A DNA stretch of 61,914 bases, taken from NCBI GenBank assembly GCA_902788975.1, contig CADAMI010000001.1, positions 1-61,914 of the forward strand. Reading direction: 5' to 3'. The stretch's first letter is position 1. Each line of letters opens with the position of its first letter. Of this stretch, positions 1 through 61,914 are shown piece by piece. Position numbers and translations under genes: made by a program. The notes below the pieces were generated by a model that was not told where the DNA came from, ran no database searches, and was given only the letters and a program-made list of their open reading frames with translations. The DNA is from an uncultured Erysipelotrichaceae bacterium (GTDB lineage: Bacteria; Bacillota_I; Bacilli_A; RF39; UBA660).

Positions 1-70
1 TGATTCTGTGGTTTCTATCCATCTGTTCACATTTTCAATACTCTTCAGACCATCCCTTGTCGCAATAGCA
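1..70. repeat. Terminal direct repeat, copy 1 (identical to 61845-61914)
   Basis: 70/70 nt identity read directly. Implies a circular or terminally redundant unit of 61,844 bp. Confidence 0.97.
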
Positions 71-141
71 TATCCTATTATGATTCCTAAAAACAATAGT
101 AAACCTATTGAAAGCACCACCATTACAATTTCACTCATCAT
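1..141 (-). CDS. 5' part (47 codons) of a junction-spanning gene: 86-aa protein with N-terminal TM helix and coiled coil
   Basis: ATGATG at 141-136 behind AGGTGA. Reads MMSEIVMVVLSIGLLLFLGIIIGYAIATRDGLKSIENVNRWIETTES to nt 1, then continues in frame at 61844. Confidence 0.6.
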   Translation of the reverse strand, partial: MMSEIVMVVLSIGLLLFLGIIIGYAIATRDGLKSIENVNRWIETTES

Positions 142-239
142 CAATCACCTTATCAACTTCTCTAAAAGTTTTTATCAACTCAAAATGTGAATAAATCAAC
201 AAACCAAAAGACATCACAATCAGAATAATCAACAATAAT

Positions 240-599
240 TCAGTTATCATTTTTCATCAACCCTTCTTTCTTTAATCTGCAATTGTACAAGTCATCACCA
301 ATTTCCTTGTTGATTCCCCTTAACTGCTCATTCTCTTCCTTTAAAGCAGAAATGATGGCTTGTTGCTCACCAATCTGCTTACGAAGTTTCACATTCTCTT
401 TCTCAAAGATATTTGCATAATCTTCTGCAATTGCTTTATCACTTTTCAAGGATTGTATGGTGGCTTGTTGCTCATTAAGTTTATCAAACAATCTGCAAAA
501 ATCTTCTTCATCACCAAAACCATACATTTCATCAGATTTAGTATCAAGTCCAAGTCCAGTATCTGTTATATAAAATTGTTTCTCACTCATCAATATCAC
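240..599 (-). CDS. Hypothetical coiled-coil protein (small-ORF block between the polB halves)
   Basis: 119-aa ORF on the coding strand, overlapping the neighbouring ORF end. Heptad-like LNEQQATIQSLK...ENEQLR. Confidence 0.6.
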   Translation of the reverse strand: MILMSEKQFYITDTGLGLDTKSDEMYGFGDEEDFCRLFDKLNEQQATIQSLKSDKAIAEDYANIFEKENVKLRKQIGEQQAIISALKEENEQLRGINKEIGDDLYNCRLKKEGLMKNDN

Positions 600-951
600 C
601 TTTGGAATATAATATAACAGTTCCTTTTTGCATATCTTGAAACATTACTGGTTTAAAATTATACAATTCTTTTCGCATCTGTTCATTCTCTTGCTCTAAT
701 GTAGTGATTTTTGACTCCAAAAAAGCATTGTAATTGCTTGTTGCATTTGAAGTTGTTTCCGAAGATTTCACTTGTTTTCGCAAATTTTCATTTTCTAATT
801 CCAATCTTTGTATCATAGTTTCTTTCTCATTCAATACTTCACACATATAATCAGATTGAGAACGATAATTCAATTCCTGCACTTCCCTATCCGAATAAGT
901 GTCCCATATCTTATATCCTTTCCTTACATACCTTTCATTACCCATCATCAA
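583..951 (-). CDS. Hypothetical coiled-coil protein (small-ORF block)
   Basis: 122-aa ORF. GGTGAT precedes TTG/ATG ATG starts at 951-943. N-terminus NERYVRKGYKIWDTYSDRE resembles that of the 46-aa ORF upstream. Confidence 0.6.
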   Translation of the reverse strand: MMMGNERYVRKGYKIWDTYSDREVQELNYRSQSDYMCEVLNEKETMIQRLELENENLRKQVKSSETTSNATSNYNAFLESKITTLEQENEQMRKELYNFKPVMFQDMQKGTVILYSKGDIDE

Positions 952-1088
952 TCACCAACCAACCTAACCAAACCATTCATTACATTTACTATTTCTTCTG
1001 CTTCAACTTTATTAACTAACCATTTCCTACCATCGTGATAGGTATCGTTAATATAATAACCATTCGTAGTAAATCGTTTTTCATTCAT
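948..1088 (-). CDS. 46-aa small ORF below the ORF-track cutoff
   Basis: ATG 1088-1086 overlaps the polB-exo stop; TGA 950-948 overlaps the next start. MNEKRFTTNGYYINDTYHDGRKWLVNKVEAEEIVNVMNGLVRLVGD. Confidence 0.4.
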   Translation of the reverse strand: MNEKRFTTNGYYINDTYHDGRKWLVNKVEAEEIVNVMNGLVRLVGD

Positions 1089-2079
1089 CTTTGAAATAAT
1101 TAAAACCACCACCAAATTTACCTTTATACTCTAAATCAACCTTGCTAACTAAAACACTATCTTCCCACATTCTTTTATTAAAATAACAATCATTAAGAAC
1201 ACTATTAGCATTAAGGTGTCTAAAATCACACCAACTTATATTCCATAATGCTTCACAAAATGATAAAATATTTAATTTTTCAGATATAGCTTTAGTTACT
1301 TCTACATCACGAATATTATATTCAATTAATGTATCAAAATCACCATCATAGAATAATTTAATAGGATTATCTTCTAATTCAATTTTTTCGATAACACCTA
1401 ATTGTTTAGCCATACTAGCTAAAGACCCAGTAACAAATAATTTATTAGCCATATTCATAATATCAATATTACAATTCATAATAGGTTCATATTTTATTTG
1501 ATTTGTTCTCATTCTATAACTTAAATACTCATCATCAAATTTTTTACTATTAAATCCAATTAAAGATAAAACTTTATTCTTTTTTAAAAACTTAGCAATA
1601 GATTTTAACATTTCCCTTTCATCACCATTATCATTTAAAAAAGTTTTAACATTATTATCTTTATCAATAAAGACTACACTAGTAACAATACCTTCACTAG
1701 GGTCTAAACTAGTAGTTTCTATATCATAATACATATATTTAGGAAAAGTTATTCCTTCATATTTAATAACTTTATCAAAATATAATAATTTAGAAGCCAA
1801 TCTCCAATCATAATAATAAAATCCTTTTTTATTTTTATGAATCTTAAAAGGTATAGTTAAATCTGGAGTAGTATAATCATATGGATAAGTTTTAATATAA
1901 TAATTGTTTTTTGTATAAGCATCTTTAAAAACTCTACAAATCTCTTTATCTGGTTTTCTTTTTAATGGTATAATCATTTGTTTAGGATATAATTTTCTTT
2001 CAATATTACCAAATTTATTATACCATTCAAATTTTATCAAATCTTCATTAAAACTACTTACATTAATCATTTTATACAC
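1081..2079 (-). CDS. polB: Family B DNA polymerase, 3'-5' exonuclease half (split gene)
   Basis: ExoI YYDIETTSL, ExoII LIGFNSKKFDDEYL, ExoIII YNIRDVEV. Ends ...KFGGGFNYFKDE, just where motif A should follow. Confidence 0.85.
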   Translation of the reverse strand: MYKMINVSSFNEDLIKFEWYNKFGNIERKLYPKQMIIPLKRKPDKEICRVFKDAYTKNNYYIKTYPYDYTTPDLTIPFKIHKNKKGFYYYDWRLASKLLYFDKVIKYEGITFPKYMYYDIETTSLDPSEGIVTSVVFIDKDNNVKTFLNDNGDEREMLKSIAKFLKKNKVLSLIGFNSKKFDDEYLSYRMRTNQIKYEPIMNCNIDIMNMANKLFVTGSLASMAKQLGVIEKIELEDNPIKLFYDGDFDTLIEYNIRDVEVTKAISEKLNILSFCEALWNISWCDFRHLNANSVLNDCYFNKRMWEDSVLVSKVDLEYKGKFGGGFNYFKDE

Positions 2080-11490: not shown

Positions 11491-11508
11491 ATCTAAATAT
11501 TAACTTCT

Positions 11509-11553
11509 TTCTATATATTATATATGTTTTTCATAGTATATAAAGGTTTCGGT
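11509..11553 (-). promoter_or_regulatory. Repeated BRE/TATA promoter cassette, copy P1
   Basis: Minus strand ACCGAAACCTTTATATACTATGAAAAACATATATAATATATAGAA. TTTATATA box at 11537-11544. Confidence 0.6.
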
Positions 11554-11554
11554 T

Positions 11555-11899
11555 TCAAACCCTTATTAATTTATATTTTTTATGTGTTTTATAACTTCCG
11601 TGTTTATCGTGTCCACAAACAGCACAATAATCTGCTCCACATTTTCTACAAGTAAATTCTTTTTCTGGAACACCTTTAGGATTTTCCCGTAAAGTATTAT
11701 ACTTTTTACAATGTGGGCAATAATCATAAAACTTAACGTTAAACCATTTATATTTAACTTTATTTATGTAACAAGTTCTACAACTAGGTTTCGCTTTCAT
11801 CTTAATAGTAGGTTTCTTTATTTTAGCAGCATCTACATCAGATGTTGCCGTTACAAAAGATATACCTATTATTAAGAATACTATAAATATTAAATACAT
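11555..11899 (-). CDS. Secreted or membrane-anchored Cys-rich protein (four CxxC pairs)
   Basis: N-terminal hydrophobic segment MYLIFIVFLIIGISFVTA, then CRTC, CPHC, CRKC, CAVC. Has its own promoter copy P2 and a GGAGAG RBS. Confidence 0.65.
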   Translation of the reverse strand: MYLIFIVFLIIGISFVTATSDVDAAKIKKPTIKMKAKPSCRTCYINKVKYKWFNVKFYDYCPHCKKYNTLRENPKGVPEKEFTCRKCGADYCAVCGHDKHGSYKTHKKYKLIRV

Positions 11900-11921
11900 A
11901 TATTTCTTAATAATAACACTC

Positions 11922-11966
11922 TCCTATATATTATATATGTTCTTCATAGTATATAAAGGTTTCGGT
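11922..11966 (-). promoter_or_regulatory. Promoter cassette, copy P2
   Basis: Near-identical 45-mer (one substitution). TATA at 11950-11957, about 50 nt upstream of ATG 11899. Confidence 0.6.
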
Positions 11967-11988
11967 CATATGACCTACTATGAAGAAA

Positions 11989-12237
11989 TTAAACACTAAA
12001 TATGTTTAATAATGATACTATAATGTTACCTATTTTTAAAGTTAATTCTCTACTAACACCCAAATGGATTAACTTAGTATCACTAGTTGTACTTGTATTT
12101 TTATAATACAATACACCATAATGAGTATCAATAGGTCTATCTTTTAAACAATAAGTCTCATCATAATACTCAGCTTTTATAATAAAAGCATCAATTTTTT
12201 TATTTTCTTCTAACCAAAATCTACTATAATTATTCAC
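11989..12237 (-). CDS. Hypothetical protein
   Basis: 82-aa ORF downstream of 12257-12814 in the same transcription unit. Confidence 0.55.
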   Translation of the reverse strand: MNNYSRFWLEENKKIDAFIIKAEYYDETYCLKDRPIDTHYGVLYYKNTSTTSDTKLIHLGVSRELTLKIGNIIVSLLNIFSV

Positions 12238-12256
12238 ATTTTCACCTTAAAAGAAT

Positions 12257-12814
12257 TTAATTAGAAAATCCTAAGATTTTCTGTTTTAATTCTTCATATT
12301 CATCATCAAATCTACTAACTCCAAATCTACTTTCTGTAATTTCAGATAAATAGTAATCTTCATCGATTATATCTTTATGAATAAATACTTTCAAATAATC
12401 GCTATAAATAAAATCTTTAGGATTATATGATTCTATTCCTATATATAAAGTTCCACCACCTATAATAAGAAATTTAGAATCATTAAAATCTGTGTCATCT
12501 TCCCATTTTATCCAAAGATGTTGATTTTTTTCTCCAAAGAAATTAATGTTAATAAATTCAATAATTTCTTTCTTATTTTTTAAAGCATTAGTTAAAGTAC
12601 TAATATCTTTATCTTCTAAAAATATTGCAAGATTTTTAACTAATGAATGTCTTATTGTACCATCGTGTTCTACAAATCCTATTTCATAAAGAATAGTCAT
12701 TGCTAAATAATGGTATATATTAAAAATATGGTCTTTATTATTTAAGTCTTGACCCAATCCTATTAATCTTTCTTTTTCTTCTTTATTTAAAGTTAAATTA
12801 TTTTTTAATTTCAT
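12257..12814 (-). CDS. Hypothetical protein
   Basis: 185-aa ORF behind promoter copy P3 and a GGAGAT RBS. Confidence 0.7.
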   Translation of the reverse strand: MKLKNNLTLNKEEKERLIGLGQDLNNKDHIFNIYHYLAMTILYEIGFVEHDGTIRHSLVKNLAIFLEDKDISTLTNALKNKKEIIEFININFFGEKNQHLWIKWEDDTDFNDSKFLIIGGGTLYIGIESYNPKDFIYSDYLKVFIHKDIIDEDYYLSEITESRFGVSRFDDEYEELKQKILGFSN

Positions 12815-12840
12815 TTTATCATCTCCATTATGTTATGTAT

Positions 12841-12884
12841 TTCTATATATATATATGTTTTTCATAGTATATAAAGGTTTCAGT
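12841..12884 (-). promoter_or_regulatory. Promoter cassette, copy P3
   Basis: ttctatatatatatatgtttttcatagtatataaaggtttcagt; minor variants of the consensus. Confidence 0.55.
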
Positions 12885-12890
12885 TTTAAC

Positions 12891-12980
12891 CCCCTACTTT
12901 ATATACTATACCCCCCCCCCAACCTAATATCCAACTAATGGTACTACTACTGTAGTACAAGGTTAGTTACCCTTTTACAC
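12891..12980 (-). ncRNA. Candidate small non-coding transcript downstream of orphan promoter copy P4
   Basis: No ORF between P4 and P3. Contains a nested hairpin (AACTAA..GTACTAC-TACT-GTAGTAC..TTAGTT, 12933-12968) and a C10 run (12911-12920). A plus-strand TTTATATACTAT at 12897-12908 leaves orientation open. Confidence 0.3.
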
Positions 12981-13018
12981 TATTATATATGTTTTTCATA
13001 GTATATAAAGGTTTCGGT
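12981..13018 (-). promoter_or_regulatory. Promoter cassette, copy P4 (distal end truncated, no gene behind it)
   Basis: tattatatatgtttttcatagtatataaaggtttcggt read directly. Confidence 0.5.
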
Positions 13019-13028
13019 AGTTTACTTA

Positions 13029-13418
13029 CTATGAAACTAATATTTTAAAAGAATAAGTATCTCTAATTTTTAAAAACATTTTAATAATGCTATTAATATT
13101 AGTAGGATTACTCTTAATCATAATAAACATATGATAATGGTCATCTATTTTTTCATTATTAATTATTTTCATTTCACTAAATCTTTGCTGCATATTAATA
13201 AGGTCTTGACCAGCATAACTACCAACTTCATATTCTACAATAATATAAATAATAGCATTATTAGATAATAAAAAATCATATTTATCAATAAAATAATTAA
13301 TCATATATCTCATCATTTCAGACCTACTACGAAAACCTAAAGACTCAGCAACACTATCATATTTATTTATAGTTTTTTTATCTAAAGCGTGTAATTGCAT
13401 ACTCATAGTATTACTCAT
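13029..13418 (-). CDS. Ribbon-helix-helix (CopG/Arc-like) DNA-binding protein with an extra C-terminal domain
   Basis: N-terminal ...YDSVAESLGFRSRSEMMRYMINYFI resembles the RHH pattern. Behind promoter copy P5. Confidence 0.55.
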   Translation of the reverse strand: MSNTMSMQLHALDKKTINKYDSVAESLGFRSRSEMMRYMINYFIDKYDFLLSNNAIIYIIVEYEVGSYAGQDLINMQQRFSEMKIINNEKIDDHYHMFIMIKSNPTNINSIIKMFLKIRDTYSFKILVS

Positions 13419-13430
13419 ATAATCACCTAC

Positions 13431-13475
13431 TTCTATATATTATATATGTTTTTCATAGTATATAAAGGTTTCGGT
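13431..13475 (-). promoter_or_regulatory. Promoter cassette, copy P5
   Basis: Exact consensus 45-mer. Confidence 0.6.
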
Positions 13476-13594
13476 TTTATGACCTTTTATTTTTTAAAAA
13501 TTTATGAATAAACGCTTTAGCATTAGGGTTAAGATAATGCTTTTTATGCTTTCTTAAAGATTCTAAAATCATACTTTCTTCAAAAAAACATAAA

Positions 13595-13750
13595 TCATCT
13601 TTGTTTATCTTTCTCAATAAAACCACCACATTCACAAATATTTCTACCAAAACCATCTACCTTAACTATAGGTAATAACATAACGTTACAAAAACCATCT
13701 GGATTATCGTTTTCACATACATCACATAAACAACTAAGTATATAATTCAT
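13595..13750 (-). CDS. 51-aa Cys-rich small protein (below the ORF-track cutoff)
   Basis: ATG 13750 behind AGGTG. MNYILSCLCDVCENDNPDGFCNVMLLPIVKVDGFGRNICECGGFIEKDKQR. Confidence 0.4.
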   Translation of the reverse strand: MNYILSCLCDVCENDNPDGFCNVMLLPIVKVDGFGRNICECGGFIEKDKQR

Positions 13751-13761
13751 AATATCAACAC

Positions 13762-14328
13762 CTAACATTTAAATGGTTCTGAAAAATCTCCATTTTCCAA
13801 ATATTTTTCAAAAGCTATAAGTATAGTTAAATATTCTCTAGCTTTATACAAATCTTCAATCTTATTTTTATCTTGATACCTTATTAAATATTTAATAACG
13901 TTACCTTTTAAAAAACCTAAAGTTTCAGTACTACTCATCAACCCATTAGTAAAAGCGTCTATTGGAGTCATACCATTTTTACTATAATGCTTAGGTCTAT
14001 GAATATTATTAATTCTACCTTCAGCATCTAATTTAGGTTTTTTTAAAGTTACACCAGTACAAATTTTTCCAGTCATACTTGAAACTTTTTTATATATTTC
14101 ATATTTATTATCAGATAATGCTAACCAAGCTAAGATTTTTGCATTTAAGTTATAATAAAAACCTTTCTTATCTTTAGCATATTCTTTTTCTAATTTTTCA
14201 TTTATGCTATCATAAGTTTCAGTAATTACAATTTTAGTACCATTATTATTAAATTCATAATTAACAATAATATCATCATTGACACAATCAACATTTTTAA
14301 CAACAATATTTAAATTCAGTTTTACCAT
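13762..14328 (-). CDS. DUF3310-family phage protein
   Basis: GNVIKYLIRYQDKNKIEDLYKAREYL matches the conserved core of the DUF3310 family as I remember it. Confidence 0.55.
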   Translation of the reverse strand: MVKLNLNIVVKNVDCVNDDIIVNYEFNNNGTKIVITETYDSINEKLEKEYAKDKKGFYYNLNAKILAWLALSDNKYEIYKKVSSMTGKICTGVTLKKPKLDAEGRINNIHRPKHYSKNGMTPIDAFTNGLMSSTETLGFLKGNVIKYLIRYQDKNKIEDLYKAREYLTILIAFEKYLENGDFSEPFKC

Positions 14329-14341
14329 CTCCTTTATGTAT

Positions 14342-14386
14342 TTCTATATATTATATATGTTTTTCATAGTATATAAAGGTTTCGGT
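14342..14386 (-). promoter_or_regulatory. Promoter cassette, copy P6
   Basis: Exact consensus 45-mer. Confidence 0.6.
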
Positions 14387-14564
14387 TTCAACTATCAAGA
14401 TTAATCAATTTAAAACCATCATTACCTTTAATAAAACAATAACCTTTATCTGGAGATAAAGATTTAATATTTTTAATTATTTTTTCAGTTACATATTCTT
14501 GTAATTCAATACAAGATTTTTCATCATCTATAATTTCAATCTCAATTTCAATTATATCACCTAC

Positions 14565-14609
14565 TTCTATATATTATATATGTTTTTCATAGTATATAAA
14601 GGTTTCGGT
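14565..14609 (-). promoter_or_regulatory. Promoter cassette, copy P7
   Basis: Exact consensus 45-mer. Confidence 0.6.
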
Positions 14610-14612
14610 AGT

Positions 14613-15413
14613 TTATAATACATCAAACAAAGTATTAATAACAAAAGGAGATAAAGAATTATTTACTTTAAAAATAAAATCATTAACATCATACCCACTT
14701 AAATCATAATTATCACTATACCCATTAATCCTAGCTATTTCACGAATAGTACAAGTAGTACGTTTAGGATTAAAATGGTAATAATGCTTCCCAGTATCAT
14801 TATTAATTGGGAATAACATAGAAATCCTATCAGCATTATCTATTTCATCTCTAAGTTTTTTACTATTAGAAGGTTTTTTATTACTACCATCAGCAAATTT
14901 CTTTTTATCTATATTATTCTTAATACCTAATTTTTTAAACACATCATCTTTTACACCTAATTCTGAAAAGATTTTATATTTTTCAAAATTAGCAGCAGCA
15001 TTATTATTAGGGATATTTAAAGTATCAGCTATTTTATAATATTCCTTTTCTAGTTTATCGATTTTTTTACCATACAATAATGCTATAGGAGCTATATGAT
15101 TATGTGGAATAGCTATTAAATCAATATCATCACTAAAAGAAAAGTATATTTTTTCTTTGCTGCAAATTATTAATAATCGCATAATATTATTAGGTAAACC
15201 AAAAAATGTATTAGATGCAATACCTTTAAATAATATATGGAAACCTTTTGATTGTAATTTGGTTGTCAGTTTTTTATACAAAATATCATCATTAATTAAT
15301 TTAGAAGGTAAATCTAAAATAAGTTTATCATTATAAAAAAAGTCAAAATCTAAATTAATTAAATCTCTTATACCTTTTTTAGAATTCAAATTTACATAAT
15401 TATCATTAAACAT
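14613..15413 (-). CDS. DNA (cytosine-5)-methyltransferase-like protein lacking the N-terminal catalytic motifs (truncated or degenerate)
   Basis: GFHILFKGIASNTFFGLPNNIMRLLII (motif VIII-like), TIREIARINGYSDNYDLSG (motif IX), VNNSLSP (motif X-like). No FxGxG or PCQ motif. Start moved to ATG 15413 behind GGAG. Confidence 0.45.
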   Translation of the reverse strand: MFNDNYVNLNSKKGIRDLINLDFDFFYNDKLILDLPSKLINDDILYKKLTTKLQSKGFHILFKGIASNTFFGLPNNIMRLLIICSKEKIYFSFSDDIDLIAIPHNHIAPIALLYGKKIDKLEKEYYKIADTLNIPNNNAAANFEKYKIFSELGVKDDVFKKLGIKNNIDKKKFADGSNKKPSNSKKLRDEIDNADRISMLFPINNDTGKHYYHFNPKRTTCTIREIARINGYSDNYDLSGYDVNDFIFKVNNSLSPFVINTLFDVL

Positions 15414-19742: not shown

Positions 19743-20040
19743 AAGAAATTCCTCCGTTCTATTGGAGCTTTACTCTCCAACAGTTGCTTTCTTCTACCTA
19801 TTGGGCAACGCTCCTACACTCGCAAAAACGACATTAACCATTGCAAAAATCACTTAGATTCGAAGAAAAGCTTATAGCTTTTTTAGATACTTTATGTAAT
19901 TAAAACGCCGTTTTTTCTTACTTAAAGTTACTTTAACGCCGAAAACGATTCTGTATTCTTTATTAGTATAGTACCGTTTTATGAATCGAGTAAAACGGAT
20001 TTAGGGGAATCTAATAGCTCAATTCGGATCCAAGAATCAC

Positions 20041-20334
20041 TATAGTTTTATAAAATACTAACAGTTTCAAAGTACATAAACAGTTTCATCTACGTAAAAC
20101 AGTTTCAAAGTATACAAACAGTTTAATAGTACATAAACAGTTTCAAAGTACATAAACAGTTTCATCTACGTAAAACAGTTTTATAAAATACTAACAGTTT
20201 CAAAGTATATAAACAGTTTAACAGTACACGAACAGTTTCAAAGTACATAAACAGTTTAATAGTACATAAACAGTTTCAAAGTACATAAACAGTTTTTAAA
20301 AATACGAACAGTTTCATTGACGTAAAACAATCGT
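20041..20334. repeat. Iteron array: 16 contiguous 19-bp units with invariant AACAGTTT core
   Basis: Core starts at 20060, 20079 ... 20307, exactly every 19 nt, with degenerate end units at 20041 and 20326. There are four unit subtypes, with a partial 133-bp higher-order repeat. Confidence 0.95.
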
Positions 20335-20357
20335 GGCGTGGCGTGGGCGTGGCGGTG
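20332..20357. repeat. CGTGG pentamer tract (cgtgg cgtgg cgtggg cgtgg cggtg)
   Basis: Read directly. Bracketed by the inverted 8-mers AATCGTGG (20329-36) and CCACGATT (20423-30). Confidence 0.9.
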
Positions 20358-21552: not shown

Positions 21553-22236
21553 TTATAAAGGTATTACAACATAGTAATTTTGTCTGTAGCCCTTATTAGC
21601 ATTATCTAAACACTTAAATTTATACTTTCTACTAACACCTTTAGCTGGGTCAGCAACAATATAATGTGTAAGGTCAGTTTTCCAAATAAGACCATAATGT
21701 CCAAACTTTGAAACATAATCACCTTTACATTTCCTTGTTTGGTCTACTTGCCAATGACAAATAATTGGGAAACCTTTCTTTAAATATTTCTTAACTTCAC
21801 TACTTTTTCTAGCAATAGGTAAAATTTTAAAACCTAATTTAGGAGCATACTTAATAAGGTTAGCTGGAGAAGTACCCCCATTTTTACTGGTCTGTAAAAT
21901 CTTAGCACATTGTTGCTCTGAGTGGTAGTTATATAACAATTGGCTAGCCATTGATAAACTAGTCGGACAACAAGTATAATTAGTACTTTGTGGGTCAAAC
22001 ACTAAAGGATTATCAGCATTACTAGTTAAAGTAACATAATTAGGATACCTACCATTTTTCAATATAAACATATTCATACTTTCATATAATCCAGCATATT
22101 GTTTTGGTGTTAATTTATATTCTTTTTTGGTATCCATATCTACCATTTTCAACCAATTAGGTAATCCTTCACCTTTTTTCAACCACTTATTTATTCTTTT
22201 AGCTCCATCTTGAAGCATATTTTTACTAAATCTCAT
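21553..22236 (-). CDS. Pseudomurein endoisopeptidase-like lysin (PMBR repeats + Cys-His-Asp peptidase; PeiW/PeiP-type)
   Basis: PMBR-like ...KKGEGLPNWLKM and LTPKQYAGLYESMNMFILKNGRYPNYVTL. Peptidase NYTCCPTSLSMA, FGHYGLIW, VADPAKG. Confidence 0.75.
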   Translation of the reverse strand: MRFSKNMLQDGAKRINKWLKKGEGLPNWLKMVDMDTKKEYKLTPKQYAGLYESMNMFILKNGRYPNYVTLTSNADNPLVFDPQSTNYTCCPTSLSMASQLLYNYHSEQQCAKILQTSKNGGTSPANLIKYAPKLGFKILPIARKSSEVKKYLKKGFPIICHWQVDQTRKCKGDYVSKFGHYGLIWKTDLTHYIVADPAKGVSRKYKFKCLDNANKGYRQNYYVVIPL

Positions 22237-53992: not shown

Positions 53993-54859
53993 TTATTTTT
54001 TCCACCTACCATCAATAATCTTAGGAATCATATATTTATAGATAAACATTTGATTAATTTTACCATTTTTAGTAAATATTTTATATGATGATGGGTCACC
54101 CATAAGATTATATAAATAATATATTAATATATCTGTAAAATAATTGATATTAATTTCATCATTTCCAGAACCATCTAATTCTTTATCTTTTTTATCATAA
54201 TACCATTTATGTACATTTTTTATATAATTTAATGTGTATGTAATATTACCTTGTCTATAATTATTCATAAAAGTTATTGTATCATTACATATAGTACCTT
54301 TAAAATTTATATATTTATTTACATCACATAACCAACCATTATAATTTAAATAATTGAAAAATTTATTAGAAAAAAAATCAGTATTACCTATAGTAGTATT
54401 TTGTACAGATGTAAAACTTAAACAATTAATTTTATCATTACAATTCATAAAATCAATTGACATTTCAAAAATATCATCTATATTTTTTAAAGGTTTAAAT
54501 AATACTTTATTTTTTATTCTTTTTTTATAATAATAACCTTCAAAATCATCTTCAGCTATATAAAAATATTTATATCCTAACTTTTTAGCAAAATAAAAAA
54601 CAACAGATAAACTATTTAAATTAGTATTTAATATGTGAAAATTATCACAACTATCATAATATTTACTTTGTTCTTTTTTATTATATAATAGTAATTTTTC
54701 TTTAGGTATTTTTTTCTTATATTCTTCTAATTCTGGGTCATTATCTTCCACTATAACATACCAATCACCAGTATACCCAGCATTTAATAGACTAGTAATA
54801 GTTATTATATTATTTGACTTTTTATATGATGTTATAAATACTGCGAAATCATCTCTCAT
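53993..54859 (-). CDS. GT-A-like glycosyltransferase paralogue 1 (tentative)
   Basis: MRDDFAVFITSYKK...GDWYVIVEDNDPELEEYKKKIPKEKLLLYNKKE...IAEDDF; ends IIDGRWKK. Confidence 0.4.
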   Translation of the reverse strand: MRDDFAVFITSYKKSNNIITITSLLNAGYTGDWYVIVEDNDPELEEYKKKIPKEKLLLYNKKEQSKYYDSCDNFHILNTNLNSLSVVFYFAKKLGYKYFYIAEDDFEGYYYKKRIKNKVLFKPLKNIDDIFEMSIDFMNCNDKINCLSFTSVQNTTIGNTDFFSNKFFNYLNYNGWLCDVNKYINFKGTICNDTITFMNNYRQGNITYTLNYIKNVHKWYYDKKDKELDGSGNDEININYFTDILIYYLYNLMGDPSSYKIFTKNGKINQMFIYKYMIPKIIDGRWKK

Positions 54860-55740
54860 TTTTTCCACCTACCATCAATAATTTTAGGATAAATATTTTC
54901 ATAATCTTTATTATAATGAAAACCATAAGTATTTTTGTTATTATAAATTATTTTAATAATACTATTAGGTCTACACATTAATAATGTCATTAATTCTAAA
55001 AATTTAGTATTAGTAAAAGTATTATATAATTCACTATTACCACCATCATTTCTATTTTTACTAAGTACAAATTTTTTACCTTTATAAAATAAAAAAGGTA
55101 AACTAATAACATATTTACCATATAAACCATTTAAATATTCAGTATTTACTTCTTCTTCAAATATACTATAGAATGGATAAGGTTTATCAACTTTCATTAA
55201 ATAAATAGATAACATTTTATTTACATACCCATCAATAAATATATTATCTGTAACACCACCAAATAAACCCATTTCATTACAAAAACTAACATTTGAATAA
55301 TGTGTATCATTTAAAAAATCTAAATGATATTCTAAACCATCATTAAATTGTATATCATTTATTTTTTTAGCCAATAATTTATTTTTATATGGTAATCTAA
55401 TAATAAAATTACTTATATCATCATCTATTATACAATAAAAATTTAAATTTAATTCATAAACTAATTCATTTTGTATATAATCTAATGCATATAATTTACA
55501 ATTAAAATCTTTTTTATTATAAAAAGTATCATATCCATTATAATGTTCTTTTTTATTAAATATAAATAAATGTTCTTTAGGTATACCATTTTTATATTCT
55601 TCTAATTGTGGGTCATTATCATCAACAACAACATACCATTTACCATCATAATTATATTTTTCTAACATATTTAAAGTATATTTTTTTAATACATCAAATC
55701 TATTATATGAAGGTATAATTATAGCAAAATCATCTCTCAT
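54856..55740 (-). CDS. GT-A-like glycosyltransferase paralogue 2 (tentative)
   Basis: FAIIIPSYNRFDVL...GKWYVVVDDNDPQLEEYKNGIPKEHLFIFNKKE...IIDDDISN; ends IIDGRWKK. Confidence 0.45.
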   Translation of the reverse strand: MRDDFAIIIPSYNRFDVLKKYTLNMLEKYNYDGKWYVVVDDNDPQLEEYKNGIPKEHLFIFNKKEHYNGYDTFYNKKDFNCKLYALDYIQNELVYELNLNFYCIIDDDISNFIIRLPYKNKLLAKKINDIQFNDGLEYHLDFLNDTHYSNVSFCNEMGLFGGVTDNIFIDGYVNKMLSIYLMKVDKPYPFYSIFEEEVNTEYLNGLYGKYVISLPFLFYKGKKFVLSKNRNDGGNSELYNTFTNTKFLELMTLLMCRPNSIIKIIYNNKNTYGFHYNKDYENIYPKIIDGRWKK

Positions 55741-59105: not shown

Positions 59106-59313
59106 ATTCTATCTCCTTAATTATTTTTTTATATTTAATAGTTTTACTATCATAAAAAGAATTAAATAATAAATTTTTATTATATAATTCCCATATACTA
59201 ATACCTTTAGAGCTAATACAAATTATTTTATTGTCTTTTTTTATAATATCTTTTATACCATAAAAAATTTTTTCTAAAAATAATCTATAACTAAGCTTTT
59301 CAGTAGGATTCAT
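59092..59313 (-). CDS. Hypothetical protein
   Basis: 73-aa ORF overlapping its neighbours. Confidence 0.5.
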   Translation of the reverse strand: MNPTEKLSYRLFLEKIFYGIKDIIKKDNKIICISSKGISIWELYNKNLLFNSFYDSKTIKYKKIIKEIEYENN

Positions 59314-59831
59314 AATTTTATAACCGTCCTTCTACTTATTTTCATTTGAGTTTTTTGGAGTCTTTCAACTTCATACATAGCTTCTTTAGGACTTTTACAT
59401 TGTTTAGTATAATAAGTTTTACCATTAACGGTAACGTGTCCTACATATCTACCATTAGCACGTTTTACCACATTATGATATTCAGTACCTTTATTCATTT
59501 GATTCATTAAAGGTAATACTAATCTTAAATTACATAATCTATTATCTCTACTGTTTCTATTAATATGGTCTACTTCTAAACCTTCTTCAGCAAACATTCC
59601 GTGTAATTTATCAGTACCTTCAACCTTTGTACTATATTTACTAGTTAAACGTATATAAGTATTTTTACCTTTAACGTGTGGTCTCCAATCATATTTTTCA
59701 ACTAAATCTTTATTACCATTACAATACCAAAAACTAAAATCTTTTTTATTATAAGTTCCTTTGTATTTATAATGCTTACATTCATCACATTTTTTACATA
59801 AATATTTCATTTTTACTGTAGTATCACTCAT
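59310..59831 (-). CDS. HNH endonuclease with AP2-like DNA-binding domain (homing-endonuclease type)
   Basis: LEVDHINRNSRDNRLCNLRLV; RANGRYVGHVTVNGKTYYTKQCKSPKEA. N-terminal CKKCDEC. Confidence 0.75.
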   Translation of the reverse strand: MSDTTVKMKYLCKKCDECKHYKYKGTYNKKDFSFWYCNGNKDLVEKYDWRPHVKGKNTYIRLTSKYSTKVEGTDKLHGMFAEEGLEVDHINRNSRDNRLCNLRLVLPLMNQMNKGTEYHNVVKRANGRYVGHVTVNGKTYYTKQCKSPKEAMYEVERLQKTQMKISRRTVIKL

Positions 59832-60279: not shown

Positions 60280-61407
60280 TCACCTAAAAAATTTTGTTAA
60301 ACTGGTTTGTAATTCTCTATCTCTAAGATTTAATTTATTAACAACCTTATCTACAGTAAATTGCACCCAATTCCTATTAATAGTATATTTAGATTCTGGT
60401 TCATAATCTAAAGGAAAAACTAACACTCCAGTAGGATTATTTATTCCATTAGCCACAACAGCATTATGATAAAAACCCCATTGAATATCAATATCGTGTT
60501 CTCTCATATATTGACAATTATCCCATTTATTAACAGCTAATTGTCTAGGTTTATGCTTAATAGCGAAATAACTTAATGGTTCACTTAATTTAGATTCCAT
60601 ATATTTATTAGCTAATAATTGTACATCTCTTTTATAAAATATTGTTCCATCTAATAAATTATCTAAAATATGATTCATTAAATCTACTTCAAATTGGCTA
60701 GATTTACTATTATAAAAAGATGCACCTTTCATTTTTCTACTATTATCTTTATGGAGTTTAACATAATTATTTTTATTAACTACTAAAAATTTAGTTAAAA
60801 ATTCTTCATAATCAAATATAATAAATCTATTTTCAAATCCAGTTAATTTTTTAACTATTTGGTCTACTAAATGTTGAGCTGTATGTAAAACTTCATAACC
60901 AGAATTTTCCCTATCTTTTAAATCTATTACAAATATTGAATCAGTTTTACCATAAACTACTTCCATATCATATTTAGGTAATTCTTTTACCAAAGTTTGC
61001 AATATAGTTCTACCAGCCCAAGTTACTGTAGCTGCAATATTAGTACCACCTAATAAAAATTTAGCTGTTTTTTGACTTAATAATCCATAAACACTATTAG
61101 CAATAATTTTTACAGCTAACTGTTCGGATTCCATACCTTTTTGTCTATATTCTCTTCTTAAATCAAGCAATTCAGTTATATATGAATCCAATAATCCATT
61201 TTCTTCATTAAATTCTTTTTTATCTATAACCAAATTCATATTAGTATCTTGATTAAAATTTACACTATATTCATTTTCTGGAGATAATCTCATTTGTCTT
61301 ATAAGATTAGGATATAACGAACTAAAATCTAAAACGTGTACATTTTCATAAATCATCATAATATCATTTTCCATTAATATAAATTTGTATATAATATAAT
61401 AATACAA
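60280..61407 (-). CDS. polB: Family B DNA polymerase, polymerase (palm/fingers/thumb) half (split gene)
   Basis: Motif A VLDFSSLYPNLI, motif B KIIANSVYGLL, motif C VVYGKTDSIFV. The ORF-track start is TTG; ATG at 61359 or 61374 is likelier. Confidence 0.85.
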   Translation of the reverse strand: MYYYIIYKFILMENDIMMIYENVHVLDFSSLYPNLIRQMRLSPENEYSVNFNQDTNMNLVIDKKEFNEENGLLDSYITELLDLRREYRQKGMESEQLAVKIIANSVYGLLSQKTAKFLLGGTNIAATVTWAGRTILQTLVKELPKYDMEVVYGKTDSIFVIDLKDRENSGYEVLHTAQHLVDQIVKKLTGFENRFIIFDYEEFLTKFLVVNKNNYVKLHKDNSRKMKGASFYNSKSSQFEVDLMNHILDNLLDGTIFYKRDVQLLANKYMESKLSEPLSYFAIKHKPRQLAVNKWDNCQYMREHDIDIQWGFYHNAVVANGINNPTGVLVFPLDYEPESKYTINRNWVQFTVDKVVNKLNLRDRELQTSLTKFFR

Positions 61408-61464
61408 TCATTAATAATCCACAAAATATTAATCCTAAAATATCATAAATCATATTATCCACTA

Positions 61465-61728
61465 TTATTTTTTCTCTTTTTCTTGTAATTTTGCTATTTT
61501 TTCCCATAATTCTACATTACGTTTTGACATATTAGCCATATCAGAAACCAAAATATTAAAATTACTACATAAACAATTATTTTTTTCGTTTAATTCATTC
61601 AATTTTTTAGTTACTTCCAAAGCAGTCATTCTCTCATCCTTTTCATTATCCCACACAAAAAAGGTATGCTCATCAAACATAAGAGTATACCTACCATCAC
61701 TCCACTTATGAATATCTTCACTCATCAT
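61465..61728 (-). CDS. Hypothetical coiled-coil protein (small-ORF block)
   Basis: 87 aa; ATGA-type overlap with the junction-spanning gene. Confidence 0.6.
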   Translation of the reverse strand: MMSEDIHKWSDGRYTLMFDEHTFFVWDNEKDERMTALEVTKKLNELNEKNNCLCSNFNILVSDMANMSKRNVELWEKIAKLQEKEKK

Positions 61729-61844
61729 CTACCCTCCCAGTCATTTAATGCTTGGATAGTGCCTTTATACTGCTCATATTCCTTGATAAGTTCTTCGTAT
61801 TTGGTTTCTAAATCCTTGTATAATTCAATCTGAACCCAATGGTT
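61725..61844 (-). CDS. 3' part (39 codons + stop) of the junction-spanning gene
   Basis: NHWVQIELYKDLETKYEELIKEYEQYKGTIQALNDWEGR*, in frame with 141-1 across the circular junction. Confidence 0.6.
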   Translation of the reverse strand, partial: NHWVQIELYKDLETKYEELIKEYEQYKGTIQALNDWEGR

Positions 61845-61914
61845 TGATTCTGTGGTTTCTATCCATCTGTTCACATTTTCAATACTCTTCAGACCATCCC
61901 TTGTCGCAATAGCA
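61845..61914. repeat. Terminal direct repeat, copy 2
   Basis: Identical to 1-70. Confidence 0.97.

Follow-up and report, generated by a model that had tools for sequence, protein, structure and literature searches.

Why does a viral genome encode a family B DNA polymerase (PolB) in two genes, with a block of small open reading frames (ORFs) lying between them? This question is raised by a 61,914-nucleotide (nt) stretch of DNA, contig CADAMI010000001.1 of assembly GCA_902788975.1, which was deposited as an uncultured Erysipelotrichaceae bacterium and which we refer to, at its full length, as the window. Positions 1-70 are identical to 61845-61914 in a self-comparison of the window, and because these terminal 70 positions repeat, the molecule is a circle of 61,844 bp; it is the circular genome of a tailed virus. 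All long ORFs lie on the minus strand, and the G+C content is ~26%. We consider it likely that the two polymerase genes produce a PolB that reassembles as a heterodimer, that the split is ancestral to a clade of viruses and was made by an HNH homing endonuclease, and that the genes now filling the gap are later cargo. The two genes, which are co-directional, are as follows.

1081..2079, minus strand: PolB N-terminal/3'-5' exonuclease subunit gene; ORF from GTG 2079, likely start ATG 2070 (MINVSS..., 329 amino acids (aa))
60280..61374, minus strand: PolB polymerase subunit gene (palm-fingers-thumb); likely start ATG 61359 (MMIYENV..., 359 aa), alternative ATG 61374

The starts at ATG 2070 and ATG 61359 are likely the true ones, as relatives begin at MINV... 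and MMIYENV..., respectively. An earlier sequence-only reading of this DNA took the open frame of the polymerase half as 61407..60280 on the minus strand and gave a distance of 1517 bp between the halves across the circular junction, which is exact with those ORF limits and becomes 1565 bp with the likely starts. Its assignment of the exonuclease motifs to one ORF and the polymerase motifs to the other also agrees with Pfam. In the exonuclease ORF, Exo I reads DIET, Exo II FNSKKFD, and Exo III YNIRD, and there is a match to RNase_H_2 (4.9e-14) as well as weak matches to DNA_pol_B_exo1/2. The polymerase ORF has LDFSSLYPNLI as motif A, KIIANSVYG as motif B, and YGKTDS as motif C and matches DNA_pol_B (6.5e-26). 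Exo I-III and motifs A and B are as expected of family B, the exception being motif C, which lacks one of its two Asp residues. The exonuclease ORF ends in YKGKFGGGFNYFKDE before its stop codon, a tail that consists of the first palm strand, GGGFNYF, followed by KDE. This half is 97.6% identical to its counterpart in L006, the closest relative with gene context, and 65% identical to that in L001. Relative to L006, the exonuclease half has a ratio of nonsynonymous to synonymous substitution rates (dN/dS) of 0.06 and the polymerase half one of 0.23, whereas the values against L001 and L011 are uninterpretable, with synonymous sites that are saturated or compositionally constrained. Among the ORFs scanned, no second intact polymerase gene was seen.

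An exhaustive phmmer search returned an unsplit relative, P0038 (675 aa), as well as seven more (P0187-P0193), such that the unsplit group spans 656-682 aa. The window's halves align end to end with P0038, the polymerase half to its residues 313-674, and P0038 reads across the break site as ...GGGYNFNNVG followed directly by VYENIFVYDFSSLYPN. The summed halves (329 + 359 aa, versus 671-682 aa for unsplit proteins) are collinear with them, with nothing lost at the junction. P0038 is encoded on a 1.85-Mb contig of a metagenome-assembled genome (MAG) labeled Methanobacterium paludis by NCBI and is taken to belong to a provirus.

To place the break in three dimensions, we used a single-chain AlphaFold2 model of P0038 based on an 84-row alignment, with a mean predicted local distance difference test score (pLDDT) of 94.6. 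The model resembles the Tgo, KOD, and Pfu PolBs (Foldseek E ~1e-32, template-modeling (TM) score ~0.72), and the full PolB fold (N-terminal, exonuclease, palm, fingers, and thumb domains) was found for this unsplit model, not for the window's halves. By DSSP, a strand at residues 307-309 (NFN) is followed by a turn at 310-311 and a second strand at 312-322, which includes the motif A residue Asp321. The break falls in the 310-311 turn of this β-hairpin, directly before motif A. In a profile alignment to KOD polymerase (1wns), it maps between G395 and L396, 8 residues before D404. With these two comparisons, to unsplit relatives and to PolB structures, both of which the sequence-only reading had proposed, its claim that PolB is cut cleanly a few residues before motif A with nothing lost is borne out, as P0038 is continuous across the site.

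The same split recurs in other metagenomes. A search of 5.8 billion proteins with the polymerase half as the query yielded 35 polymerase halves encoded on their own, of 337-363 aa and 45-95% identity. With the exonuclease half as the query, we obtained 29 proteins of 262-360 aa that likewise stand alone, at 40-95% identity. The exonuclease halves end 2-12 residues past GGGxNY, with the first palm strand GGGFNYF conserved in 27 of the 29, while all full-length polymerase halves begin 1-5 residues ahead of (I/V)(Y/F)xxV..DFxSLYP. Motifs B and C are present in every polymerase half (35/35 each) and motif A in all but one (34/35), the exception being truncated at its N-terminus. Likewise, Exo I and Exo II occur in 29/29 exonuclease halves, and Exo III is recognized by pattern in 28/29, with the last reading YNLQD. 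Wherever both flanks are readable, a single gene string contains the two halves in the same orientation. The INPHARED phage GenBank collection holds no close relative, its best matches being halovirus PolBs at ~25-27% identity, IMG/VR scans gave a single relative (L001/L002), and a scan of GTDB species genomes gave none. The split is probably ancestral to a large clade of viruses, which probably infect Methanobrevibacter.

The conservation of the split bears directly on whether we are looking at a gene that was inactivated by an insertion and is decaying, or at an assembly artifact, for which the missing first Asp of motif C might be taken as a sign. Such an error or decay had been named from the outset as what would undo the two-gene interpretation. 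However, the same split occurs in dozens of independent assemblies from different studies, the catalytic motifs are intact, and purifying selection acts on both halves, and we therefore give this explanation almost no credence. The altered motif C itself does not track with the split. The Lys noted in the window's YGKTDS is real, and (G/A)KTDS is found in 47/47 family members, both split and unsplit, as well as in the next outgroups P0041, P0042, and P0044. PolBs at a greater distance have DTDS, and the second Asp is retained in the KTDS family (TD(S)). Judging from the alignment, the Lys in place of the first motif C Asp characterizes the entire lineage and is not tied to the split, and this lineage-wide YGKTDS merits biochemical attention.

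How might the two products work together? The N-terminal domain, the 3'-5' exonuclease, and the short strand that opens the palm, GGGFNYF, would belong to the exonuclease subunit, leaving the motif A strand, the fingers, the remaining palm, and the thumb to the polymerase subunit. The two would be translated separately from one operon. Because the last strand of the exonuclease subunit pairs only with the first strand of the polymerase subunit, reassembly by strand pairing is suggested: the former's C-terminal strand and the motif A strand at the N-terminus of the latter would come together and re-form the β-hairpin, adding to the normal interface of the exonuclease part with the palm and thumb. 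We infer that the subunits assemble and are active together, for which the hairpin position of the break, the purifying selection, and the conserved motifs provide indirect support. A different arrangement would be one with no stable complex, in which the polymerase half works alone and the exonuclease half is a proofreader acting in trans or an unrelated RNase H-like nuclease. In Rhodothermus phage RM378, for which much the same is assumed, the 313-aa exonuclease-type protein Rm378p024 and the 522-aa polymerase part Rm378p092 are encoded far apart, and in the lineage of L017 and L019 the halves lie at least 10 kb apart. The two halves also differ in their identity between the window and L006 (97.6% for the exonuclease, 88-91% for the polymerase), which points to independent exchange. 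We nonetheless find this arrangement improbable, as 27/29 exonuclease halves keep GGGFNYF, which has no role outside the palm sheet, the break lies in a hairpin turn, and both halves are present and co-oriented wherever both flanks can be read.

The favored heterodimer leaves the question of how the gene came to be divided. A comparison is offered by L018, which is unsplit, and L007, which is split. The two are syntenic, and 7 nt of the former are replaced by 505 nt in the latter, with flanks that are 73-75% identical. The L007 insert consists of a short tail, TAG, a 9-nt spacer, a 155-aa HNH ORF, and a TGA that abuts the ATG of the polymerase half. The 155-aa ORF matches HNH_3 with 28 bits (cut-off 24.8) and phrog_99 (2.5e-15). 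In L016, two HNH genes occupy the gap (HNH_3, 60 and 25 bits; NUMOD3), one of them directly upstream of the polymerase half, and P0029 of L016 belongs to an early-branching lineage of the split group in our trees. An endonuclease gene thus sits between the pieces in L007 (one HNH) and L016 (two HNH), and not in the window. Because an HNH gene is found at the exact site in L007 and two are found in L016, a homing endonuclease is the likely origin of the split. In this scenario, a free-standing HNH homing-endonuclease gene would have inserted just upstream of the motif A codons, supplying a stop and a new start, and its product would have the conserved coding region of motif A as its target. The endonuclease would subsequently have been lost or replaced, and the intercistronic site would have become a recombination boundary gathering unrelated small genes, of which the seven small ORFs of the window would be the current set. 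In polymerase-domain trees, the unsplit proteins form one group with 98-100% support, and the split P0035 of L007 is nested inside this group, beside P0187. The split state requires at least 2 changes on the tree, and the approximately unbiased (AU) test does not reject the remaining 36 split rows as monophyletic (p = 0.35).

The content of the gap varies widely among relatives, as listed here.

L011: 14 nt (TAA, AAGAGGT, ATG), without a gap gene
L001: 0.3 kb, one 98-aa ORF
L015: 0.3 kb, 40- and 54-aa ORFs
L003/L004: 0.5 kb (L003), 77- and 54-aa ORFs
L007/L008: 0.5 kb (L007), a single 155-aa HNH gene
L016: 1.5-1.7 kb class, L016 3676-6001, with an HNH gene, a 137-aa ORF (phrog_7971), and an HNH gene
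L006: 1.7 kb, five ORFs
L013/L014: 4.2 kb, 14 ORFs
L017: upstream 10 kb without an exonuclease half
L019: exonuclease half, then at least 10 kb including two methylase genes and a DUF2828 gene

The DUF2828 gene in the L019 gap is the one that directly precedes the polymerase half in L017. For P0016, on a 90-kb contig, the distance between the halves (>10 kb) is a lower bound. With gap sizes from as little as 14 nt up to 10 kb or more, the small ORFs are interchangeable cargo, neither the cause of the split nor a needed partner of the polymerase. In L011 (4975-5003), a GAA precedes the TAA stop, and a second GAA stands in the reading frame of the polymerase ATG, 12 nt further on.

This GAA pair is also one of two observations in favor of a further explanation, that the halves are rejoined by a group I intron, a split intein, or translational bypassing, the other being that introns and inteins are common at PolB catalytic motifs. 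Although shaped like a take-off and landing codon, the L011 repeat is most likely a coincidence beside a normal ribosome-binding site, AAGAGGT. An Rfam scan of the window at gathering thresholds gave zero families, and the gap is full of ORFs, or only 14 nt long in L011. The total of 329 + 359 aa against 671-682 aa, with ends that abut the extein and only 3-12 extra residues, leaves no room for intein blocks such as those of the Nanoarchaeum equitans type of split PolB. Moreover, translation of every polymerase half can begin at a start codon of its own, preceded where visible by a ribosome-binding site. Rejoining is extremely unlikely on these grounds, and neither intein fragments, an intron, nor a bypass signal is needed to explain the present split.

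In the window itself, the gap contains seven plausible ORFs (46, ~120, ~116, 39, ~86, 87, and ~29 aa), which are linked by stop/start overlaps (ATGA-type) or by spacings of 13 nt or less.

948..1088, minus strand: gap ORF 1, 46 aa; ATG overlaps the exonuclease-gene stop (ATGAATGA); without a family match
583..951, minus strand: gap ORF 2, 120-122 aa, coiled-coil-like; in Pfam, weak leucine-zipper-type noise only
240..599, minus strand: gap ORF 3, 116-119 aa, coiled-coil-like
131..250, minus strand: gap ORF 4, 39 aa, single-pass membrane peptide; unlisted in the sequence-only reading
1..144, minus strand: gap ORF 5, 86-87 aa, membrane helix and coiled coil, 5' part; runs over the junction into 61844..61725
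61725..61914, minus strand: gap ORF 5, 3' part; 61845-61914 repeat window positions 1-70 (assembly overlap)
61465..61728, minus strand: gap ORF 6, 87 aa, coiled-coil-like; ATG overlaps the ORF 5 stop (ATGA)
61364..61453, minus strand: gap ORF 7, ~29-aa membrane peptide; stop 4 nt ahead of the polymerase ATG

The 86-87-aa ORF is continuous over the circular junction, and a 47-aa reading of ORF 7 from ATG 61507 is also open. Five translationally coupled small ORFs had been described here; the coupling stands, but the count rises to seven with two membrane peptides of 39 and ~29 aa. The implied role of this coiled-coil-containing 1.5-kb block as the splitter does not hold up, as the split is much older, being shared down to ~45-50% identity, and the gaps of relatives hold different contents or, in L011, only 14 nt. 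Among gap genes, an obvious means of splitting a gene is seen only in the HNH endonucleases of L007 and L016.

An all-against-all comparison of gap ORFs revealed sharing in patches only. For ORFs 2, 3, and 6 of the window, partial homologs exist in L006, with residues 1-94 of ORF 2 being 84% identical to an L006 gap ORF and residues 1-58 of ORF 6 being 81% identical to part of a 188-aa L006 gap ORF. ORF 4 (131-250) is 90% identical to a gap ORF of L013 (L013 1620-1742), while the polymerase halves of the two viruses are 53% identical, indicating that cassettes move between distant viruses. We also considered whether ORFs 1, 2, 3, and 6 are paralogs that share an N-terminal GY.I.DT..D; the alignment is suggestive, and we claim nothing from it. 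A profile built from these four ORFs found no further copies in the genome.

Could the small proteins be functional partners that bridge or regulate the halves? Their ORFs are tightly coupled in translation to both halves, and some recur in L006 and L013. There is also a precedent in phage Aeh1, where mobile-element-derived sequences aid the assembly of a split NrdA (PMC3045599). Such a role is very doubtful, however. L011 has no gap gene at all, and the polymerase therefore cannot depend on the small proteins as partners. In the gaps of L001, L003, L015, L007, and L016, an all-against-all BLASTP (E <= 1e-3) detected nothing similar to the window's gap genes, and no informative family match was found for the window's gap ORFs.

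Several observations weigh against a heterodimeric PolB divided by an HNH endonuclease. First, the mutual binding of the halves is predicted from folds that are those of single chains and not of a multimer, and the first Asp of motif C, which nearly all PolBs possess, is a Lys in this family, such that full catalytic competence is assumed from conservation. In addition, dN/dS is unreliable at larger distances, where synonymous sites are saturated or biased at 26% G+C. On the origin of the split, all seven ORFs in the window's gap lack a match to any nuclease family, and the nearest HNH gene of the window (59310-59831) is 450 bp downstream of the polymerase half. The HNH genes of L007 and L016 may have arrived only after the gene had been split, a course of events that is possible for the large clade and that has been argued for the endonuclease of phage 25 (PMC2988022). 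Finally, the direction of change is sensitive to the inference: the quick tree places the unsplit group as sister to the split clade, whereas the careful tree nests it inside with negligible support (17-56% bootstrap), and the unsplit group may by this topology be the product of re-fusion.

The window and L006 provide a view of recombination at the break. The two align without gaps at 97.6% identity over 4271 bp, ending at window position 1068, which is 13 nt past the exonuclease stop. Beyond 1068, only two patches align, with the polymerase half at 90.9% and the downstream region at 82%. This same base is where contigs from other rumen samples terminate or join, and one from sample X1, the probable source sample, joins 151 to 1068, omitting 916 bp of the gap. 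The sharp identity boundary at 1068 indicates that subunits are exchanged independently between viruses. A more far-reaching version of this idea is that the break serves as a fixed module boundary and gene-landing pad in methanogen viruses and brings a benefit through detachable proofreading. Two of its parts are seen, namely subunit reassortment at the end of the first cistron and the accretion of accessory genes to at least 10 kb. The remaining part is speculative: a detachable proofreading subunit might tune editing while heavily modified DNA is copied. Heavy modification of the viral DNA is apparent from genes for glycosyltransferases, amidoligases, and a radical-SAM protein, and an artificially split Pfu polymerase reportedly gained tolerance for modified nucleotides. 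Taken as a whole, we regard this version as unlikely.

Among previously described split polymerases, one parallel to the window's genes is found in T4-like phages. Split gp43A/gp43B genes occur in Aeromonas phages 44RR, 25, 31, and 65 and in Acinetobacter phage 133 (PMC2988022 and PMC3061061, summarizing Petrov et al. 2006, 2010). As in the window, there are two co-directional cistrons, 2 bp to 3 kb apart, with a free-standing homing-endonuclease gene sometimes in the gap, and here too it is debated whether the endonuclease split the gene or invaded later. The phage 25 gp43A/43B proteins co-purify and polymerise (PMC2988022), and an artificially split Pfu polymerase is fully active (PMC3061061). 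The site is not the same, however. In the GenBank record of 44RR, gp43A (498 aa) includes motif A (SFDLTSLYPS), and gp43B (391 aa) starts just before motif B. The T4-like break is therefore in the fingertips with motif A in the first subunit, in agreement with the published site (PMC3061061), whereas all polymerase motifs are in the second subunit in the window's clade. The endonucleases also differ, being GIY-YIG (seg-type) in T4-like phages and HNH in the window's clade, as do the hosts, which are archaeal in the latter.

Archaeal and archaeal-virus PolBs encoded by two genes have been reported as well. Group B magroviruses have a DNA polymerase split inside the catalytic domain, termed unique among archaeal viruses in 2017 (Philosof et al. 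2017, PMC5434244), and in Methanothermobacter thermautotrophicus PolB (Kelman et al. 1999), the palm is broken ~83 residues C-terminal to Pfu 467/468, with genes 85 kb apart (PMC3061061). In both, the break is inside the catalytic (palm) domain, unlike in the window's clade, where it precedes motif A. The suggestion that the window's break point is unlike those of T4-like phages and Methanobacteriales thus holds for 44RR, on which it was checked, and for the published Methanobacteriales site (PMC3061061).

Nearest in logic is RM378 (NC_004735), with which the window shares the separation of an exonuclease part from a whole polymerase part; its PolB is described as split between the N-terminal part and the palm (PMC3061061). 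There, the polymerase part retains the first palm strand, RGAYIEL (MNINKYRYRGAYIELTNPDIYFNVFDLDFTSLYPS), which in the window stays with the exonuclease subunit, placing the RM378 break ~15-20 residues further upstream. The RM378 genes are also 57 kb apart on the record, and RM378 is a single phage rather than a clade with empty and filled sites. Beyond general PolB similarity, no sequence relationship was seen between RM378 and the window's halves. A parallel for the proposed origin is nrdA-a/mobE/nrdA-b of Aeromonas phage Aeh1 (Friedrich et al. 2007; PMC3045599), in which an HNH-type homing-endonuclease gene lies in a conserved region of an essential replication-related gene and two polypeptides reassemble, matching the arrangement of L007 and L016. 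The Aeh1 gene is that of a ribonucleotide reductase, and the window differs further in that the endonuclease is gone and small genes have taken the site.

In the literature, we found no description of this split in methanogen viruses, although a prior mention in a Nat Microbiol 2023 catalogue is possible. Split PolBs and endonuclease-fractured genes are well documented, and the kind of biology is not new; what is new is the break site and the host group. With the window's clade, a replicative polymerase encoded by two genes would be known from a second, independent archaeal virus group, here divided at a new site in the hairpin turn 8 residues before the motif A Asp. The series is unusually complete, comprising an unsplit gene, a fresh HNH insertion, a bare stop/start, and a multi-kb cargo region. 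As such, it offers a natural system for how selfish nucleases fracture essential genes non-lethally and how fractured sites are recycled, as well as a naturally validated point for dividing PolB into separable proofreading and polymerising subunits.

The remainder of the genome is that of a tailed virus, with genes for the large and small terminase, a tail tube, and a baseplate Gp10-like protein, in addition to NrdD. Genes for DNA modification include two amidoligases, a radical-SAM protein, and a C5 methylase, and of the TAGT glycosyltransferase-type paralogs, one was scanned in the window (53993-54868) and three are found in L006. A tRNA scan of the window was empty. Downstream of the polymerase half, a free-standing HNH endonuclease gene (59310-59831, 173 aa; phrog_99, 6.5e-19) has a similar gene in L006 at the same relative position.

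As for the host, the 227-aa product of ORF 21553-22236 contains a cysteine peptidase domain of the C39 type (1e-9) along with a weak match to the pseudomurein-binding repeat (PMBR, E = 4e-4) and is a putative pseudomurein lysin, a candidate marker of a Methanobacteriales host. Together with the nearest unsplit polymerase, which comes from the M. paludis-labeled MAG, and with bovine gut metagenomes that contain DNA near-identical to the window, this protein points to a virus of rumen Methanobacteriales, with Methanobrevibacter as the probable host genus. The circular contig of an archaeal virus was probably binned with an unrelated bacterial genome.

Two repeat families were also observed. At 20002-20336, at least 14 direct repeats with a 19-bp period and the core AAACAGTTTCA sit in a stretch without an ORF of 100 aa or more; in its layout, the array resembles an iteron array and is possibly a replication origin. 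At 11497-14640, a conserved element of ~45 nt, CTATATATTATATATGTTTTTCATAGTATATAAAGGTTTCGG, occurs in seven copies, each in a successive intergenic space, and from this placement it is probably a repeated promoter or leader.

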